64,000 bases of DNA from Planctomycetota bacterium (GTDB taxonomy: Bacteria; Planctomycetota; MHYJ01; JACQXL01), in contig JACRIK010000027.1 in assembly GCA_016235865.1 (NCBI GenBank), positions 26,213-90,212 of the forward strand, given 5' to 3'. Numbering within the stretch: position 1 is the first letter of the stretch; each line of letters begins with the position of its first letter. Made by a program: the position numbers and the translations under genes. A model generated the notes under the pieces. That model had not been told where the DNA came from, did not search any database, and saw nothing but the letters and a program-made list of their open reading frames with translations. Positions 1,025 through 56,854 of the stretch are shown one piece after another.

Positions 1025-3136
1025 ATGGACTCCTTTAAATTAGTCAGCAGATTCAAGCCCTGCGGTGACCAGCCCCAGGCCATTAAGAAGCTCGTCGCGG
1101 GCATCAATGCGAATAAGCAGAATCAGGTTTTGTTGGGCGTGACCGGCTCAGGCAAGACATTCACTGTGGCTAATGCCATAGCCAAAGTCAATCGTCCGAC
1201 ACTGGTGATTTCACATAACAAGACCCTGGCCGCCCAGTTATACGCCGAGTTCAAGGAGTTTTTCCCGCATAACGCGGTGCATTATTTCGTGAGTTATTAC
1301 GATTATTACCAGCCCGAGGCCTATATCCCCCAGCGGGATATCTATATAGAAAAGGACGCGGCGATTAATGAGAATCTGGAGCGGCTGCGACTGGCCGCCA
1401 CCTCGGCCCTGCTGTCCCGGCGCGATGTGATTATCGTGGCCAGCGTTTCCTGCATCTACAATCTCGGCTCGCCTGAGGATTATGCCGGGATGGCGCTGCC
1501 GATTAAAAAGGGTGACCGGATGCCCAGGCGGGAGTTCCTGAAACGGCTGGTGGATATGCAATACGAGCGCTCGGAGACGGATTTCAAGCCGGGCAGTTTC
1601 CGGCTGCGGGGCGGCGAGATTATAGAGATTTTCCCGCCGTACCAGGATAATGCGCTCCGGATTATATTCGGCGATAAATTAGCCCCTCACCTATCCTCTC
1701 CCCAAGGGGGAGAGGGAAGGGTACGGGGAGATACCATAGAGCAGATTCTGATGGTGCATCCGCTGACCGGACAGACCATTTCAGCCCTGGACCAATACAT
1801 GCTTTTCCCGACCAAGCATTTTATCATTCCGGAAACCAAGGTGGCCCAAGGGGTGGAGTCCATCCGGCGCGAGCTGGAGTCGCATCTCAAGGCGCTCCAG
1901 AAGCAGGGCAAGGCGCTGGAGGCCCAGCGGCTCCAGAGCCGGACCAATTATGATTTGGAGATGATTGCGGAAATCGGGTATTGCAAGGGCATCGAGAACT
2001 ACGCCCGTCATTTCAGCGGCCGGCCGGCTGGGCAGAGGCCGACCACGCTGATTGATTATTTCCCGCCGGATTTCCTGACCCTGGTGGACGAGTCGCACGT
2101 GACTATCCCGCAGATACGGGGGATGTTCAACGGCGACCAGGCGCGCAAGAAGGTGCTGATAGAATACGGGTTCCGGTTGCCCTCGGCGCTGGATAACCGG
2201 CCGATGAAGTTTCCGGAATGGGAATCCTCGGTCAGGCAGCGGGTGTTCATCTCGGCCACGCCCGGTCCGTATGAAATGGGGCTGGCAAGCCCCATTAGAA
2301 ATGACACAACCGCTACTGATAATAATAATCGGGCGACAAAGACACCTGCCAAGGCGGGCATTTCTAACGGGGCAAGTAAGCCGGATGTGGTGGAACAGAT
2401 TATTCGCCCGACCGGATTGGTTGACCCGGCAATCATCATCAGGCCGATTACCGGGCAGATTGCCGACCTGCTCCAGCGGATTCAGCAGCGGATAAAATCC
2501 AATGAGCGGGTGCTGATTACCACACTGACCAAGCGGCTGGCTGAGGAGCTGTCATCCTATCTGCAGGAGAACCGGATAAAGGGCAAATACCTGCATTCGG
2601 ATATACATACGATTGAGCGGGTCAAGATTCTCAATGAACTGCGCCAGGGTAAGTTTGATGTCCTGGTCGGCGTGAATCTGCTCAGGGAAGGGCTGGACCT
2701 GCCTGAGGTGTCGCTGGTGGCGATTCTGGATGCGGATAAGGAGGGGTTCCTGCGTTCGGCTACATCCATTATCCAGACGGTCGGGCGGACGGCCCGGAAT
2801 GTCAATGGCGAGGTGGTGCTCTATGCGGACCATATGACTGATTCCATCAACCAGGCGATGAGCGAGACCACCCGGCGCCGGAATATTCAGCTGGCTTACA
2901 ATAAGAAGAATAATATTACGCCTAAGACCATCAAGAAGGAGATTCTTAAGGGGATTGAGATGGAAGACCGGGGCAGGGAGGTCTCGGCCCGGGCTATCGG
3001 GATGAAGTTAGAGGCGTATAAAGGGGTGGAGCTGGTTCGGGAACTGGAAAGAGAGATGTACGAGGCGGCTGAGAAGCTGGATTTTGAATACGCGGCTCAG
3101 GTCAGGGATACCATAAAGAAGATAAGGAAGAAGTAG
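1025..3136 (+). CDS. uvrB: Excinuclease ABC subunit B (UvrB), 703 aa, with two lineage-specific insertions
   Basis: N-terminus FKPCGDQPQAIKKL, Walker A GVTGSGKT, helicase motifs and a C-terminal UvrB/UvrC interaction helix (EYAAQVRDTIKKI). Length exceeds typical UvrB because of the inserts at aa 220-238 and about 422-455. Confidence 0.95.
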   Translation: MDSFKLVSRFKPCGDQPQAIKKLVAGINANKQNQVLLGVTGSGKTFTVANAIAKVNRPTLVISHNKTLAAQLYAEFKEFFPHNAVHYFVSYYDYYQPEAYIPQRDIYIEKDAAINENLERLRLAATSALLSRRDVIIVASVSCIYNLGSPEDYAGMALPIKKGDRMPRREFLKRLVDMQYERSETDFKPGSFRLRGGEIIEIFPPYQDNALRIIFGDKLAPHLSSPQGGEGRVRGDTIEQILMVHPLTGQTISALDQYMLFPTKHFIIPETKVAQGVESIRRELESHLKALQKQGKALEAQRLQSRTNYDLEMIAEIGYCKGIENYARHFSGRPAGQRPTTLIDYFPPDFLTLVDESHVTIPQIRGMFNGDQARKKVLIEYGFRLPSALDNRPMKFPEWESSVRQRVFISATPGPYEMGLASPIRNDTTATDNNNRATKTPAKAGISNGASKPDVVEQIIRPTGLVDPAIIIRPITGQIADLLQRIQQRIKSNERVLITTLTKRLAEELSSYLQENRIKGKYLHSDIHTIERVKILNELRQGKFDVLVGVNLLREGLDLPEVSLVAILDADKEGFLRSATSIIQTVGRTARNVNGEVVLYADHMTDSINQAMSETTRRRNIQLAYNKKNNITPKTIKKEILKGIEMEDRGREVSARAIGMKLEAYKGVELVRELEREMYEAAEKLDFEYAAQVRDTIKKIRKK
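1683..1731. repeat. Roughly 46-bp palindromic element inserted in frame within uvrB (cccctcacctatcctctcccc aag ggggagagggaagggtacgggg)
   Basis: Inverted repeat cctctcccc/ggggagagg. It encodes the extra peptide LAPHLSSPQGGEGRVRGD between the conserved IFGD and TIEQI segments. Its 21-mer is identical to the reverse complement of 45716-45736. Confidence 0.7.
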
Positions 3137-8289: not shown

Positions 8290-11200
8290 TTAATGAACCG
8301 GGGTATTCATTGATTCCTGTGCCTGCCGGACAAAGGCCTCCAGGCGCATCTCCTCGCCCGGATTCTTGATGCCGTCCACGGTCATGGTCAGTACCGGAAT
8401 GTTGTATTCGTCCTTGAAGCGCTTGAGCAGGGCGGTGACGATATTGCCGGGCATGCAGCCGAAGGGAATAATATTGAGGATGCCGTTGAATCCGGCGTGG
8501 GCGTATTCCTCGGCCCGGCCCAGGCTCAGGACCGCCTCGCCTCTCAGGGCCGGTTCAATATAGGCCGAGCCGTGTTTGACCACCACCGAGGTCGGCGATT
8601 CATAGTGGAAATGCCGGATTTTTCCCTTGAAATGCTTCTTGATTTTATTCGCCTCGCGTTCCTGGAAGACCAGGGTGACTTTCTGCTTGATGAAACTCAA
8701 ATAGTCATTCTTGAGCAGGAAATCCTCTTCCCGGAGATAATCGATGTAATCCAGCCACTCCTCAAAAGGCGGCAGGGCCACCTCGGCGCCCAGCTCTTCC
8801 ATTTTAGCCACCGCGTGGTTGTTGGTGAAGGGATTGCTGCGCACGTAGATTTCGCCGATGACGCCGATCTTCGGCTTGGGCTTGGAATAATCGGTCTTGA
8901 TTTTGTCAAACCGCTTGATGGCGTCTTTGGTAAAGCCCTCGATATCGCCGTTCTCTTTGGGCGCGGACTCAATGAATTTCTGGAGACTCTGGAATGTCTC
9001 CGCATAAACCCGGTTGGTCTCGCCCTTGGTCGTTTCATAAGGCCGGGTTTCCCGGGCTAATTTCTGGAGCAGGTCCAGCAGCACCAGCCCGCGCCAGACG
9101 TTTTTCTTGAATTTGGCCGAACCGAGCACCGCCATATCCTTATGGAAATTGGCGGTTTGGTCAAAGGTCACTATGGGCACGTCATTTAAGCCCACCTCGT
9201 CCAGCACCATCCGGTGCAGTTTGTTATACTGGCCGAACCGGCAGGGTCCTTTGGCCGAAGGCATGAAAAAGGCGCTGCGGGCCGGCTTAAAATCCGGAAG
9301 CCGGCTCTGCTTGATAATATCGCCGGTGGTGATGATGCTCGGGAAGCACTCACGACCTGAGGTGTATTTCCGGCCGATAATCAGGCTCTCGTCATCGGAC
9401 GGCGGCAAGGCCTGTGAATCTATGCCGGCCGACCTGAATGCGGCCGCTATGACAAATCCGTGGTCATCCATATAAGGGATATAGATAGTCCGGGAATCGC
9501 GCGGCAGGGCCGCCAGCGATACAGTGGCCGACGGATGGCTGCTGGTGGTGGCCAGGTTCCGGGCGTGCTTTATCGTATCGATGAACGCCTCGCACCGGGT
9601 CTGCATTCCCACGTCCGCGCTGTGCTCGTCTATTTCCAGAGACAGGTAGGGCTTGCCGTGCATCTCCTTCTCGAAGAACTTGGTGATGTAGGAATCCGGC
9701 CCGCAGTTGAAGTTAGTCAGGTAGACCGCAAACAGGTTTTTAGTCCGTCCGATATAGCGGGCCGCGGCCAGGATTTTCTGGCCGGACCGCCAGTACATAT
9801 ACGGATAATCCCGGCCGATTTCCTCGCCCATGGCTTTCATCGGCAGGAAGTCAATCGGGATGACCGTCATGCCCAGCTTGCGCAGTTTCTCAGCCAGATT
9901 GAGATTCAGGCCGGTGTCATAACTGTTGTAGGAACGGGTCAGCAGCACCAGGGCCGGCGCGTTCCCGGCCAGGACCTCCTGGCCGCGTTCAACCTGCCAG
10001 CGGTCGAACCGCTCCTGGGCATCAAAGGCCCGCTCCATGCAGCGCTCGACATTATTCGTGTGGTGCTCGATGGACTTGGCTATCTTCTTTAAGGTTTTTT
10101 CTATTTCCTTCCGGCCCCGGTCCATATAAAATACCGGCCGGATGATTTTAGTATTGTATTTCTTATAATCAATGGCGCTCCGGGTGGTATCCGGCAATGC
10201 CTGGATATAAGGGCAGTTGTACGAACGGTCAAAGTGTTTGCTCAGGGGCGGCATATTCACCTGGAACGGGATAAACAGATAGTCAATGCCCTTTTCCAGG
10301 ACGTTAATGATATGGCCGTGCGCGGTCTTTATCGGGAAGCACGGCTCAGCCACCACGTTCTCCACGCCCTTCTTGATGACCGCCCGGTTGGTGTCGTCGG
10401 ATAAGACTATCTCCAGCCCCAGCTCCGAGAAGAAGGTATGCCAGAGCGGATACAGGTCGTAGAAGACCGAGATGCGCGGAATGCCGATTCTGGGTTTGGC
10501 GGCCTGTCCCTCCTTGTGGACGGGTAAAGTGTCCGCCTGCAGCAGCATCTTCTGGCGTTCCCTGAAGAAGTTGGGCGACTTGGCCCTCAAGTGCTGGGCC
10601 GATTGCTTGTCTTCGGTATCGTCGTATTTCCCGCAGCGCGAGCCGTAGTGCAGGGTTTTGGCCTTGGACTGCTCCCCGCTGAACTTGACCCGGTGTATCT
10701 CGCAGTTGTTCGGGCAATCCGTGCACTCAAACGATGATGATTCATATTGGATATGTTTCAGGTCGAAACCCTTGAATTTGGTTTTATAATCGCTGGTCTC
10801 TCTTTCCTCTTTAGCCATGATGGCCGCGCCGACCGCGCCCAGGATATCGTGATGGGGCGGGACAATCACCTTTTTTCCGGTCACCTGCTCAAAGGCGTTC
10901 TTGACCGCCCGGTTAAAGGCCACGCCGCCTTGGAAAAATATATGCTCGCCGACCTTGCGCTTTTCCACCACCTTGTTGAGATAATTCTCCACAATGGAAT
11001 AAGCCAGGCCGGAAATCAGGTCGTCCTTGGCCACGCCCAGCTGTTTGTAATAATTCAACTGCGATTCCACAAAGACCGTGCAGCGCTCGCCCAGCGAGCA
11101 CGGGCCGCCCGAGCAGAATGCCCGCTCGGCGAATTCCTGGTTAATCTTGATAGCCAGTTTTTCGGCCTGCTCTTCCAGGAACGAGCCGGTGCCGGCCGCG

Positions 11201-12540
11201 CAGACCTTGTTCATGGTGAAATCCACCACCACGCCGTCTTTGAGCGAGATGTATTTGGAATCCTGGCCGCCGATTTCAAAGATGGTATCCACCCGCGGGT
11301 CAGCCGCCACGGCCGCCCGGGCGTGGCTGGTAATCTCGTTCTTGATGACGTCCGCGCCGAAGAATTCGCCGGTCAGATGACGGCCTGAGCCGGTCGAGCC
11401 GGCGCCTTTGATGATGACCTTATCAGCAATCTCGGTCCCGACCTCAAGCAGACCCTGGCGCACCGCCTCGATGGGCTTGCCGGCCGTCATCAGGTAGCGC
11501 CGGGACAGAACGTTGTTGTTATTATCAATCACCACTACGTTGGTGGAAATGGAACCCACGTCCACCCCGACATAGGCCTCAATCTTGGCGCCCGGCTTAG
11601 TCGGATACGGTTCGACCCGGATGGTGTAGTCGTCGTTCTTGAGCGGCGCCAGTTTCTGGATGTCTAACTTGCGCTCGGACAGGTAGCGTTCCAAATCGCT
11701 GATAATCCGGGCCGGGCCGATGGGCATGCCCTTGATGCGCCGGGGCCGGTAAGAATGGGCCAGGGATAGGACCGAGCCGATGGCGCCCATAAAGGCAAAA
11801 TGCTCCGGTACGATGATGTCCTTTTCATCTATCTGGAGGATTTCCCGGAAGGCCCGAATCATGCCCTGATTGGCGGCCACGCCGCCCTGGAAGGCGATGG
11901 GCTTTTCTATATTAATCCCCTTGGCAATGCTGCTCTTAAAATTACGGGCCATGGCAAAGCACAGGCCGGCCAGGATATCGCCGATGGATGTGCCGACCTG
12001 CTGGAGATGAATCATATCGCTCTTGGCAAAGACGCTGCACCGGGCCGCCACGGTGGACGGATGTTTGGAATTCAGGGCCTCCCGACCCACGTCTTCTATC
12101 TTGATACCCATGCGCGAGGCCTGCTGGTCCAGGAACGAGCCGGTGCCGGCCGCGCAGGCCGAATTGGTGGCGAAATCAGTCACCCGGACTGCCTTTCCGT
12201 AATAAGAATCTACCTTGATGACCTTGGCATCCTCGCCGCCGATTTCAATGATGGTCTTGACTTTGGGGTAGAGCGTGCTGGTGCCGGTGGCCTGAGCGGT
12301 AATTTCATTGACAAAGGCCGCGTTGGTGAAGGTGGCCAGGTTCTTGCCGCCCGTGCCGGTGGTGGCGATGAACTCGATGTATTCCGGATTATGCCGGGTA
12401 AAGACATCCTTGAGAACGGCCAGCGTGGTCTCAAAGGGCTGGCCGTGCGAGCGGACGTATTGGGTCTCTTTGATCTTCAGGTCGCCATCCAGCACCACCA
12501 CCTTGACGGCCACAGAACCGATGTCAATGCCTAAATACAT
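8290..12540 (-). CDS. 1416-aa fusion of two BadF/BadG/BcrA/BcrD-type ATPase (CoA-substrate-specific enzyme activase, HgdC-like) domains to a C-terminal 2-hydroxyacyl-CoA dehydratase D-component-like (HgdB/DUF2229-like) domain
   Basis: Two ASKHA-fold starts (MYLGIDIGSVAVKVVVLDG and EAYVGVDVGSISTNVVVID), conserved Cys pairs (CAAGTGSFL twice) and a C-terminal segment RIGIPRISVFYDLYPLWHTFF typical of the dehydratase family. Confidence 0.8.
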   Translation of the reverse strand: MYLGIDIGSVAVKVVVLDGDLKIKETQYVRSHGQPFETTLAVLKDVFTRHNPEYIEFIATTGTGGKNLATFTNAAFVNEITAQATGTSTLYPKVKTIIEIGGEDAKVIKVDSYYGKAVRVTDFATNSACAAGTGSFLDQQASRMGIKIEDVGREALNSKHPSTVAARCSVFAKSDMIHLQQVGTSIGDILAGLCFAMARNFKSSIAKGINIEKPIAFQGGVAANQGMIRAFREILQIDEKDIIVPEHFAFMGAIGSVLSLAHSYRPRRIKGMPIGPARIISDLERYLSERKLDIQKLAPLKNDDYTIRVEPYPTKPGAKIEAYVGVDVGSISTNVVVIDNNNNVLSRRYLMTAGKPIEAVRQGLLEVGTEIADKVIIKGAGSTGSGRHLTGEFFGADVIKNEITSHARAAVAADPRVDTIFEIGGQDSKYISLKDGVVVDFTMNKVCAAGTGSFLEEQAEKLAIKINQEFAERAFCSGGPCSLGERCTVFVESQLNYYKQLGVAKDDLISGLAYSIVENYLNKVVEKRKVGEHIFFQGGVAFNRAVKNAFEQVTGKKVIVPPHHDILGAVGAAIMAKEERETSDYKTKFKGFDLKHIQYESSSFECTDCPNNCEIHRVKFSGEQSKAKTLHYGSRCGKYDDTEDKQSAQHLRAKSPNFFRERQKMLLQADTLPVHKEGQAAKPRIGIPRISVFYDLYPLWHTFFSELGLEIVLSDDTNRAVIKKGVENVVAEPCFPIKTAHGHIINVLEKGIDYLFIPFQVNMPPLSKHFDRSYNCPYIQALPDTTRSAIDYKKYNTKIIRPVFYMDRGRKEIEKTLKKIAKSIEHHTNNVERCMERAFDAQERFDRWQVERGQEVLAGNAPALVLLTRSYNSYDTGLNLNLAEKLRKLGMTVIPIDFLPMKAMGEEIGRDYPYMYWRSGQKILAAARYIGRTKNLFAVYLTNFNCGPDSYITKFFEKEMHGKPYLSLEIDEHSADVGMQTRCEAFIDTIKHARNLATTSSHPSATVSLAALPRDSRTIYIPYMDDHGFVIAAAFRSAGIDSQALPPSDDESLIIGRKYTSGRECFPSIITTGDIIKQSRLPDFKPARSAFFMPSAKGPCRFGQYNKLHRMVLDEVGLNDVPIVTFDQTANFHKDMAVLGSAKFKKNVWRGLVLLDLLQKLARETRPYETTKGETNRVYAETFQSLQKFIESAPKENGDIEGFTKDAIKRFDKIKTDYSKPKPKIGVIGEIYVRSNPFTNNHAVAKMEELGAEVALPPFEEWLDYIDYLREEDFLLKNDYLSFIKQKVTLVFQEREANKIKKHFKGKIRHFHYESPTSVVVKHGSAYIEPALRGEAVLSLGRAEEYAHAGFNGILNIIPFGCMPGNIVTALLKRFKDEYNIPVLTMTVDGIKNPGEEMRLEAFVRQAQESMNTPVH

Positions 12541-13584: not shown

Positions 13585-13656
13585 CTGAGAAATGTAACCA
13601 CAGATTACGCTGATTACACAGATTTTAATCAGAGGAATCTGTGGTTAAAAGTATTT
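13585..13656. terminator. Hairpin between convergent genes (aaccacagat ... atctgtggtt stem), a candidate bidirectional terminator built from the octamer repeat family
   Basis: Perfect 10-bp inverted repeat around a loop of about 45 nt that itself contains cacagatt units. Confidence 0.4.
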
Positions 13657-33680: not shown

Positions 33681-33754
33681 TACGCCCGACAGGAGTCGAA
33701 CCTGTAACCTTTTGATCCGTAATCAAAAGCTCTATCCAGTTGAGCTACGGGCGC
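33681..33754 (-). tRNA. tRNA-Arg (anticodon ACG), 74 nt
   Basis: Reverse complement GCGCCCGTAGCTCAACTGGATAGAGCTTTTGATTACGGATCAAAAGGTTACAGGTTCGACTCCTGTCGGGCGT. Anticodon loop UUACGGA and T-loop GGTTCGACTCC. Confidence 0.85.
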
Positions 33755-33826
33755 TTTACTCGCTGTTACCCAGCCCGTAGGGGTGGGGTTACAGCGAGTT
33801 ATCCCGGCAGTTTTTGCCGGGAATTA

Positions 33827-34306: not shown

Positions 34307-34461
34307 ACGGCATATTCTCTACCAGAATCAGCCGAAGAAGGCAAGAAAAACCACAGATTACACAGATGGGCACAGATTTTCCAAAATATAATCCGTGTAA
34401 TCTGCGAAATCTGTGGTTGCTTTTCCTTGCATTTATTCCGGTTCTGTGGTATAATTATTCT

Positions 34462-45136: not shown

Positions 45137-46273
45137 ATGCTGTATTTCCGTATCATTGACGTCAATGCCAATCGGGCGCGGGAGGCAACCCGGGTTATAG
45201 AGGATTACGCCCGCTTTATCCTGGAGGATGCGGTCTTGAGCGCCAAGGCCCGGAGCATTAGGCATCAATTAGTAAATATCCTCAAGCCCTGCGCTCGGCA
45301 GATGCTGGCCAGCCGGGATATTCAGGCCGATATCGGCAAGGAAACCGCGACATCAGCCAAGACAACCGCTGAGATTGTCATCAGTAATCTCCGCCGGTTA
45401 AGCGAGTCATTACGCAGTATTTCAGAGTATTCTAAAACTATTATTAAAGATAATCTGTGTAAATCTGCTTGCACTGAGCAAAGCGAATGTGTGTCATCTG
45501 TGGTTAGGGATGTTGAACGCCTGCGCTTTGAGGCATACCAATTAGAACAGGAATTCTCATTTATCCTCTATCCTAACAAGGCATTTGATAAGGTGCGTCT
45601 TTATGTGTTGGTGCCGGGCATCCGGAACGATAAGATTATCAGGGATTTGATTAAGGGAGGAGCAGGTGCTATTCAATTAAGAGTAAATACCCCCTCACCC
45701 TTCCCTCTCCCCTGTGGGGAGAGGATAGGTGAGGGGAGCGGTACCGAATCATTAACCGACAAGAAATTATTGGAGCTGGCTGTAAAGTTTCGGAAGATTA
45801 CCAGAGCGCATCAGGCCTTGTTTATTATCAATAACCGGATTGATATTGCTTTGTTGAGCAATGCAGACGGCGTGCATCTGGGCGCCACTGATTGTTCTGT
45901 CCGTGACGCTCGCAAAATATTAGGGCCGGATAAGATTATCGGCGCCACCAGCCATTCCATTGCCGAGGCGCTGGACGCCCAGCGGAACGGGGCTGATTAC
46001 GTCTCGGTCGGTCCGATGTTCTCGTCGCCCACCAAGCCGCATCTGGCGCTGGTTGGGTTCAGTTATCTCAAGGAGGTGGCCAGGAAGATACATATTCCCT
46101 ATGTGGCTATCGGCGGCATCACCGCAAGAAATCTGCCGGTTCTGTTGAAGGCGCATAAGAGGTTATTTAAAGAACCGCTCAAGATTGCGGTTTCATCGGG
46201 GATTCTCAACAGCAAGAATGTATCAGAAGCAACAAGGCGGATAAATAAAATACTTAACCACAAGGGACATTAA
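45137..46273 (+). CDS. thiE: Thiamine-phosphate synthase (ThiE) domain with an unrecognised roughly 160-aa N-terminal domain, 378 aa. The ThiE domain is interrupted in frame by a palindromic element
   Basis: ThiE motifs AIQLR ... FIINNRIDIAL ... ADGVHLG ... IGATSHS ... GADYVSVGPMF. The insert VNTPSPFPLPCGERIGEGSGTES sits directly after QLR. Confidence 0.75.
   Translation: MLYFRIIDVNANRAREATRVIEDYARFILEDAVLSAKARSIRHQLVNILKPCARQMLASRDIQADIGKETATSAKTTAEIVISNLRRLSESLRSISEYSKTIIKDNLCKSACTEQSECVSSVVRDVERLRFEAYQLEQEFSFILYPNKAFDKVRLYVLVPGIRNDKIIRDLIKGGAGAIQLRVNTPSPFPLPCGERIGEGSGTESLTDKKLLELAVKFRKITRAHQALFIINNRIDIALLSNADGVHLGATDCSVRDARKILGPDKIIGATSHSIAEALDAQRNGADYVSVGPMFSSPTKPHLALVGFSYLKEVARKIHIPYVAIGGITARNLPVLLKAHKRLFKEPLKIAVSSGILNSKNVSEATRRINKILNHKGH
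45691..45736. repeat. 46-bp palindromic element inserted in frame within thiE (cccctcacccttccctctcccc tgt ggggagaggataggtgagggg). It is the inverse-orientation copy of the uvrB element
   Basis: The 22/21-nt arms are reverse complements of each other. Positions 45716-45736 are the exact reverse complement of uvrB 1683-1703. Confidence 0.75.
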
Positions 46274-56728: not shown

Positions 56729-56854
56729 GGGTTAGAGGTTAAGAATTGGGACGCAGATTTCGCTGATTTACGCAGATAAATCCTGATAATCTGTAAAATC
56801 TGCGTTTATCTGCGTTCTATTTCTCGGTCTCTGCGGAGTTTATCTGTGGTTACC
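56729..56854. terminator. Convergent-gene spacer composed of cgcagat/atctgcg and atctgtgg octamer units forming nested hairpins (acgcagataaatcctgataatctgtaaaatctgcgt). Candidate bidirectional terminator
   Basis: Inverted repeats read directly. Same unit family as 3137-3347. Confidence 0.4.

Follow-up and report, generated by a model that had tools for sequence, protein, structure and literature searches.

The stretch of DNA analyzed here, called the window, comprises 64,000 nucleotides of contig JACRIK010000027.1 from a metagenome-assembled genome (MAG) of a Planctomycetota bacterium (GCA_016235865.1). It holds two copies of a GC-rich dispersed repeat of 46 to 47 bp, one in frame within the excinuclease gene uvrB and one in frame within the thiamine-phosphate synthase gene thiE. 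The repeat probably belongs to the BoxC/PIT/TMECO family of intrastrand-triplex repeats, in a palindromic four-block form (C′-C-G-G′), and an ancestor of this planctomycete lineage would have gained it in both genes as a discrete unit (54 nt in uvrB, 60 nt in thiE) that has persisted, most likely, as a neutral passenger. The element itself is of an ordinary kind; its location is unusual and informative.

Two copies of one repeat lie in frame in uvrB and thiE

The uvrB gene lies at 1025..3136 on the plus strand and encodes 703 amino acids (open reading frame list and match to solved UvrB structures). Its product is 100% identical to P0001, annotated as [quoted passage not shown] and matches structures 3uwx, 2fdc, 1d9z, and others with E values of about 1e-235. 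These structures align with it end to end except for a gap of 18 residues opposite KLAPHLSSPQGGEGRVRG, which corresponds to amino acids 218 to 235 and is encoded by 54 nt at 1676..1729 on the plus strand. The nucleotide boundaries are accurate to about 3 to 6 nt, and the edge in the protein is ambiguous by 1 to 2 residues because GD stands on both flanks. Within the insert, positions 1683..1728 (no strand assigned) form an imperfect GC-rich inverted repeat made of four blocks: CCCCTCACC (1683-1691), CCTCTCCCC (1695-1703), GGGGAGAGG (1707-1715), and GGTACGGGG (1720-1728). This core reads CCCCTCACCTATCCTCTCCCC AAG GGGGAGAGGGAAGGGTACGGGG; its arms (1683-1703 and 1707-1727) are 21 nt each and 76% complementary, with a loop of 3 nt.

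The second copy lies in thiE (45137..46273, plus strand), which encodes a 378-amino-acid fusion of ThiD2 and TMP-TENI thiamine-phosphate synthase (PF17792 and PF02581) that is 100% identical to P0121. Protein alignment and DNA comparison with three related loci (L124, L125, and L126) delimited a 60-nt in-frame insert at 45683..45742 on the plus strand, with the layout GTAAATA-hairpin-AGCGGT and encoding VNTPSPFPLPCGERIGEGSG. The hairpin core, at 45690..45736 (no strand assigned), reads CCCCCTCACC CTTC CCTCTCCCC TGT GGGGAGAGG ATA GGTGAGGGG. Judged by its internal asymmetry, this copy is opposite in orientation to the copy in uvrB. The outer flanks of the two copies, read on the coding strand, are nevertheless shared in the same orientation, 5′ TAAAT...CCCC and GGGGAG..TACC 3′ (1676-1735 versus 45683-45745). 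This combination could reflect a flip through recombination between the 9-bp outer stems, or it could be coincidence.

The window has exactly two occurrences of the 21-mer CCCCTCACCTATCCTCTCCCC, one at 1683-1703 (plus strand) and one at 45716-45736 (minus strand); 100 dinucleotide-preserving shuffles gave none. By blastn, the two copies are 95% identical over 40 nt. When the 64 kb was searched with a profile of 108 related copies, a cutoff as loose as E ≤ 100 still gave no match beyond those in uvrB and thiE. The initial annotation had described an 18-residue insert in UvrB, a GC-rich palindrome of about 46 bp within it, and a match of its first 21 nt to the reverse complement of a thiE segment; each of these descriptions was borne out.

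Folding with ViennaRNA, whose model does not cover triplexes, gave free energies of −31 to −38 kcal/mol for the RNA hairpin of the element and, for the thiE copy as DNA, −19.4 and −20.6 kcal/mol (z of about −5). The outer stem of the uvrB copy is weaker (DNA hairpin of −14.6 versus about −20 kcal/mol). Its third block differs from the consensus by two substitutions, both synonymous (GTG AGG to GTA CGG), and these account for both the weaker stem and the loss of the coding-strand triplex motif described below. With two changes only, decay of this copy is anecdotal. An Rfam scan of the window reported no family at gathering thresholds besides two tRNAs; over 1600-1820 it returned merely chance microRNA- or snoRNA-like hairpin matches (E > 0.1).

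UvrB contains a second in-frame insert, of 30 amino acids (ASPIRNDTTATDNNNRATKTPAKAGISNGA, residues 421 to 450, window 2285-2374), shared only with the closest relative, P0002, and absent from every other orthologue. This segment was considered as a further copy and rejected: by eye it is neither palindromic nor GC-rich, and neither the inverted-repeat scan of the window nor the element profile reported anything there. An AlphaFold2 (AF2) model shows it as disordered coil.

Relatives carry empty and differently filled sites

Alignment with orthologues showed that the uvrB insert is missing from P0003 (96.7% amino acid and 93.4% nucleotide identity), P0005, P0006, P0007, and P0009. The thiE insert is missing from P0123 and nine other aligned orthologues (P0125-P0132 and P0134). 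Nucleotide identity of the empty-site orthologues to the window genes is about 93 to 94% for uvrB and 84% for thiE. In the empty thiE locus L124, CAACTTAGG is joined directly to ACAGAGCAT, and the window has exactly 60 nt more at that point. Two other thiE loci are filled with the same insert: L125 has lost 6 nt from one arm, and in L126 the hairpin loop itself contains a nested insertion of about 33 nt. The right half of the thiE element is identical at 30/30 positions between genes that are 82% identical overall. A recombination tract around this insert was considered; identity between the window and L125 rises there to only 0.90-1.00 versus 0.82 gene-wide, a modest increase that is not decisive.

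Because close orthologues of both genes have empty sites, the inserted sequence is not native, as the initial annotation had proposed for UvrB, and the copies elsewhere say the same. The same inserts occur in independent assemblies of different samples (L002 for uvrB; L125 and L126 for thiE) and are therefore not assembly artefacts. A native, lineage-specific extension of the UvrB loop that is palindromic by chance, or an artefact of assembly, is thus extremely unlikely as an explanation. Loop length does vary among planctomycete UvrBs, as such an extension would have it; against this stand the identical 21-mer and the 40-nt, 95% match in an unrelated gene where none is expected by chance, the empty sites, the independent assemblies, and over 120 additional exact matches to the arm in metagenomes, which together refute it.

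Comparison of filled and empty thiE sites revealed no unambiguous target-site duplication. Such duplications had been raised in the initial annotation, and the only candidates are short direct repeats, TACC in thiE and GAT in uvrB. A flank profile of 42 copies showed weak AT-rich symmetry and a weak T-rich or GTAA-like bias. The same annotation had called the insert a mobile element. It is repeated, non-native, and in frame in a housekeeping gene; mobility itself we infer from presence and absence among relatives and from copy number.

The matching GAT codons that flank the uvrB insert made translational bypassing a candidate. It was rejected because the putative take-off codon is not followed by a stop, the insert frame is open, and thiE lacks matching codons.

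The repeat resembles the BoxC/PIT/TMECO family

Assignment to this family draws on block architecture and on sequence similarity. An ITxF motif is defined as three consecutive blocks: a pyrimidine stem, its purine complement, and a third strand that runs antiparallel to this complement and forms triads of the types G·G:C, A·A:T, or T·A:T. Stem length may be 6 to 15 nt and loop length 1 to 6 nt, and no more than one mismatch is allowed. The block order CCTCTCCCC-N3-GGGGAGAGG-N3-4-GGTGAGGGG fully obeys this purine-motif rule. A script that placed GGTGAGGGG antiparallel to GGGGAGAGG scored 9/9 triads of the three permitted types. Perfect nine-triad class II motifs of the form CCTCTCCCC / GGGGAGAGG / GGTGAGGGG occur only three times in the 64 kb: on both strands of the thiE copy and on the uvrB copy's minus strand. 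The plus strand of the uvrB copy fails the rule with two mismatches, its third block being degenerate.

The architecture is the one described for BoxC, later named PIT and TMECO (Holder et al. 2015, PMC4666352). Bachellier et al. in the 1990s and Hoyne et al. in 2000 also reported on these repeats. Searched by blastn, the thiE copy matched 4535 of 5426 complete E. coli genomes, and the best alignments cover 51 nt at 84.6% identity (E = 6e-5, database of 28 Gb). One such match (L247) lies in the intergenic wcaJ-cpsG spacer and reads CCCCTCACCCTAACCCTCTCCCCTGTGGGGAGAGGGCTGGGGTGAGCGG. Among the genome copies listed from the scan described below, the block following the query, GTGAGGGG, is kept in 106/125 versus only 35/125 for the outer left block, CCCCTCAC. 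These counts indicate that the conserved unit consists of a C block, a G block, and a second G block, as in TMECO, and that the perfect palindrome is a subtype. Palindromic double forms also occur in E. coli (PMC4666352).

The initial annotation had likened the insert to Rickettsia palindromic elements (RPEs). The likeness holds for behavior, since a palindromic repeat lies in frame in unrelated housekeeping genes at predicted loop sites; it fails for size, host, and sequence family. RPEs are about 150 bp long, fall into ten families confined to Rickettsia, and encode a conserved peptide per family (PMC10969869). The present element is GC-rich, 46 to 60 bp long, spread over many phyla, and alignable to E. 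coli BoxC at 85%. Length, host, and BoxC similarity refute membership in the RPE families as described, and a relationship to them is almost certainly excluded.

The repeat is widespread and mainly intergenic

A scan of one genome per species with the pattern CCTCTCCCC-N2-5-GGGGAGAGGGAAGG returned at least 120 loci in many phyla. The matches listed include Alphaproteobacteria (many of them Sphingomonas), Planctomycetota (including Scalindua), Nitrospirota, Omnitrophota, Verrucomicrobiota, Thermodesulfobacteriota, Acidobacteriota, Armatimonadota, MAGs of Clostridia, Enterobacter, and Klebsiella. In metagenomes, the exact 21-nt arm was found at at least 120 loci, including the Hainich aquifer. 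The Hainich groundwater wells hold many near-identical copies and are also the origin of the closest uvrB relative. Further copies, for which the initial annotation had suggested a search, thus exist in many other organisms, both between genes and in frame within other genes.

Among the metagenome copies listed, 13 of the 102 that could be evaluated lie in stop-free stretches of at least 150 nt on both sides, versus 64% of random positions on the same contigs; the element is therefore mainly intergenic. A corresponding open-reading-frame span test on the genome contigs gave 51% versus 81% for the control and is unreliable, since high-GC genomes have long spurious open frames. In-frame copies confirmed by Pfam occur in RecG, the alpha subunit of 2-oxoacid:ferredoxin oxidoreductase (POR/KorA), ValS, NadE, and a BatA/VWA protein. 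Read directly, three of the six frames of the element are free of stops and give the peptides PHLSSPxGGEGRVRG, PSPFPLPxGERIGEG, and TLSPxGRGKGEG.

Plasmids and phages were considered as vehicles and rejected because matches are rare: 84 of 72,556 plasmid records, mostly very large replicons; none of the 50,697 records in a phage genome collection; and 13 stretches of IMG/VR viral contigs.

Some copies have a larger context. At Sphingomonas loci (L011, L015, L030, L064, and L080), an extra GC-rich hairpin, GGCCCGC...GCGGG, separates the second block from the third, GGGAAGGGTGAGGG, and makes a longer composite. On contigs from Hainich and other groundwater (L138, L148, L175, L190, and L233), copies often adjoin a conserved segment resembling GTATGGAATTTCAAAG. 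This neighbor suggests that the repeat is part of a larger composite in those groundwater organisms.

The UvrB insert occupies a variable, predicted loop of domain 2

In the AF2 model of UvrB, residues 219 to 234 form a coil with a predicted local distance difference test score (pLDDT) below 50 between the strands at 210-216 and 237-244 of domain 2 (PF17757, the UvrA-interaction domain). The insert thus maps to a predicted loop on the structure model, as the initial annotation had raised. No other internal site has insertions as often as this loop in a set of 119 related UvrBs; six of these proteins carry at least four different contents there. In four uvrB genes with 91 to 94% nucleotide identity, the state of this one codon position differs from gene to gene, and in the gene tree the filled P0008 is sister to the empty P0007.

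The contents differ among close relatives. P0002 (97.1% amino acid identity) keeps the right arm, GGGGGAGAGGGAAGGGTGAGGGGGG, and has other GC-rich palindromes in place of the left part; its loop (L002, 1876-2060) contains a palindrome, CCCCC-TTTGCAAA-GGGGG, nested in the triplex element. At this codon position, P0004 and P0008 have another repeat, which is bounded by TGTCATTCTGA on the 5′ side and by TCAGAATGACA (P0004) or TCAGGGTGACA (P0008) on the 3′ side. In a distant lineage, the UvrB loop of P0021 contains another G/C-rich triplex-like variant, CCCTCCCCC...GGGGGAGGGAAGGGTGGGGG. The leader GCTCAGTTAAA precedes the C block in both P0002 and P0021, and loop repeats of relatives were also located at L003 (2660-2850), L248 (900-1080), and L263 (the P0021 insert). 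Different repeats in the loops of sister lineages fit either a permissive loop or local instability of the motif.

The codons that flank the filled alleles are alike (xIEQIL; LDTQx in P0004 and P0008) and unlike those of empty alleles (IMEDNxSQIL), which hints at recombinational exchange of alleles or at repeated turnover of one old insertion. A stronger version of this idea would make the domain 2 beta-hairpin loop an actively targeted or structurally fragile hot spot, to which triplex or hairpin repeats of several families home or in which they replace one another, with filled alleles crossing lineages by recombination. We consider that version distinctly unlikely. If it were true, the UvrA-binding domain of a repair protein would harbor a hypervariable in-frame cassette, and BoxC-type copies in coding sequences would act as generators of protein-loop diversity.

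Persistence, effect, and spread of the element

Membership in the BoxC/PIT/TMECO family, with insertion in an ancestor, suggests the following course. The inserts may have survived selection because their length is a multiple of three, the frame used in each gene is among the element's three without stops, and, in uvrB, the site is a predicted flexible loop. Each would be translated as a flexible loop rich in Pro, Gly, Ser, Glu, and Arg and would most likely be a neutral passenger in its protein. The DNA may extrude as a hairpin or cruciform and, by the sequence rule, as a purine-motif triplex, with slippage, small deletions, and further insertions as possible consequences. Such structure-driven instability would account for the truncated, nested, or different repeats found at the orthologous sites of sister genomes. 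E. coli TMECO loci show arm deletions, nested insertions, and instability as well (PMC4666352). Homologous recombination between related genomes may also help to spread filled alleles.

Retention of the insert because it is useful would be another explanation for its persistence; it might alter binding of UvrA by UvrB domain 2, or its mRNA hairpin might pause translation between folding units. The insert does lie 3 to 5 residues past the R213/E215 region, which was reportedly implicated in UvrA binding by Bacillus caldotenax UvrB in work by Truglio and colleagues in 2004. The strong RNA hairpin, the synonymous nature of both changes in the uvrB copy, and the 30/30 identity in thiE would also suit a function. 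We regard such a function as very unlikely, since sister lineages with 96 to 97% identical UvrBs do without the insert or hold unrelated sequence at the same spot, the insert is predicted to be disordered, one element yields different peptides from different frames in different proteins, and most copies are intergenic.

As to the mode of insertion, the whole element is one inverted repeat and lacks an unambiguous target-site duplication. [quoted passage not shown] One form of this idea is a nonautonomous transposon like MITEs or repetitive extragenic palindromic (REP) sequences, with a REP-associated tyrosine transposase (RAYT; IS200/IS605-like Y1) encoded elsewhere in the genome that acts in trans and inserts hairpin DNA without target-site duplication. 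The clean 60-nt thiE insert, the single strong hairpin, and the nested insertion in the hairpin loop of L126 agree with it. RAYT-like domains (PF01797) do occur in related planctomycetes, and at L177 a RAYT-like match (12015-12377) lies about 1 kb from a copy of the 21-mer (10968-10988).

We nevertheless consider this mode of insertion unlikely. When two RAYT domains taken from ThiE fusions were searched against the window and all loci, nothing credible as a RAYT or Y1 transposase was found in the 64-kb window, where the best tblastn match (E = 0.008) fell in an unrelated open reading frame. REP families are typically species or genus specific, unlike an element with about 85% identity from E. 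coli to Planctomycetota. The two large REP superfamilies are described as carrying a GTAG or CGTC tag at one end of the palindrome (PMC3733652); that tag is absent here, where the edges read TTAG/CCCC...GGGG/AGAT and ATAC/CCCC...GGGG/AGCG. Finally, no transposase or integrase was ever found by Holder et al. in the neighborhood of a TMECO site (PMC4666352).

The RAYT-like domains just mentioned belong to two distant ThiE homologues, P0180 and P0235, in which ThiE is fused by read-through to a Y1 domain. Their linkers (ADILVCPSK, GQTSPSVS, and TDIPVCH) presumably resemble translated REP-type repeats.

Several points weigh against the BoxC/PIT/TMECO assignment and the simple history proposed with it. 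The strict TMECO pattern, CCCTCNCCC N3-6 GGGNGAGGG N3 GGGNGAGGG (PMC4666352), was not matched on any of the four strands. The second loop measures 3 to 4 nt in a register displaced by a single base; read in the TMECO register, it measures 2 nt, and one stem position differs. The element is therefore classed as a variant within the family, distinct from canonical TMECO. In E. coli K-12 MG1655, the motif has 23 copies that are always intergenic (PMC4666352), unlike both intragenic copies in the window. Holder et al. saw no evidence for a stable triplex in duplex DNA or in vivo (PMC4666352), and the G-rich arm is also a canonical G-quadruplex motif; hence, the triplex may be irrelevant and the hairpin may be the sole relevant structure. 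The flanking codons differ between filled and empty uvrB alleles, so the history of uvrB was not a simple single insertion. The AF2 model of UvrB is of moderate quality (mean pLDDT of 64.6), the count of two copies refers to 64 kb of this MAG, and no mobilizing enzyme was found in that window.

Other repeats in the window and in ThiE

A second, AT-richer palindromic family occurs in the window at 13595-13647, 34350-34418, and 56751-56815, with units CACAGATT / AATCTGTG (and ACGCAGAT / ATCTGCGT). Its copy at 13595-13647 lies between two convergent open reading frames. In the ThiD2 domain of thiE, at about 45449-45500, the DNA for the peptide IIKDNLCKSACTEQSECVSSVV contains AATCTGTG...AAATCTGC...CATCTGTGG. 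The peptide is present in the ThiE orthologues P0121-P0123, P0125, and P0126 and is not found in P0124 or P0127-P0131. Given this type of DNA and this patchy presence, thiE seems to carry an in-frame piece of the second repeat family too. The ThiE alignment shows lineage-specific inserts at other positions in P0130 (PVRSPSPRGDGRCLGHLTSNGAS), in P0132 (a segment of about 50 amino acids), and in P0134. In-frame insertions of repeat-like sequence thus appear to be frequent in this clade. A 19-bp inverted repeat, ACTCGCTGTTACCCAGCCC / GGGTGGGGTTACAGCGAGT, lies at 33758-33799, directly adjoining the tRNA gene at 33681-33754.

Significance and comparison with known repeats

BoxC/PIT/TMECO motifs have been known since the 1990s, and their origin, means of spread, and function are unsettled. 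Copies in coding sequences are informative because their flanks can be aligned codon by codon. Exact filled and empty sites can then be read, here with a clean 60-nt unit and no obvious duplication, and successive decay, nested insertion, and replacement can be traced at one position. The TMECO pattern was cataloged in 262 proteobacterial genomes, with other G/C-rich triplex motifs in cyanobacteria and Thermus (PMC4666352). Our matches carry the family far beyond the proteobacterial genomes, into Planctomycetota, Nitrospirota, Omnitrophota, Verrucomicrobiota, and other phyla, at about 85% identity. Such similarity across phyla calls for one of two things: a trans-acting partner that is itself conserved, or horizontal transfer on a very frequent basis. 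For annotation, short inserts rich in Pro, Gly, Glu, and Arg in metagenome proteins (GEGRVRG or PLPxGERIGEG) may be translated repeats and not lineage-specific functional motifs. Set against the open-access full-text literature, the translated in-frame copies in housekeeping genes, the presence of the family in Planctomycetota and, among uncultivated bacteria, in many other phyla, the exact filled and empty sites, and the recurrently hit UvrB loop seem to be undescribed.

The element shares features with several known systems. Like RPEs, it inserts in frame into unrelated and often essential genes and adds a peptide at positions presumably compatible with the fold; unlike RPEs, it yields different peptides because at least three of its frames are used. 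Like REP and BIME sequences, it is a short, GC-rich, imperfect palindrome with many dispersed copies, mostly extragenic and without obvious target duplication; it differs in lacking the GTAG/CGTC tag, in having no RAYT in the window, and in a conservation across phyla far broader than is usual for REP families. It also recalls the intragenic ERIC/IRU sequences of enterobacteria, small mobile sequences that are nominally intergenic, at times lie inside genes, and contain open reading frames (Delihas 2007, PMC2759123); those units are 103 to 168 bp long and unrelated in sequence. The window copies depart from BoxC/PIT/TMECO in being translated within coding sequences, in the host (an uncultivated groundwater planctomycete), and in the second loop and register. 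They agree with that family in having a unit of three blocks (a C-rich stem, its G-rich complement, and another G-rich block, with 9-nt stems), in matching an E. coli copy at 84.6% over 51 nt, in the occurrence of double palindromic forms, in having no clear tie to transposases, plasmids, or phages, and in the unusual variability of the carrier loci among close relatives.

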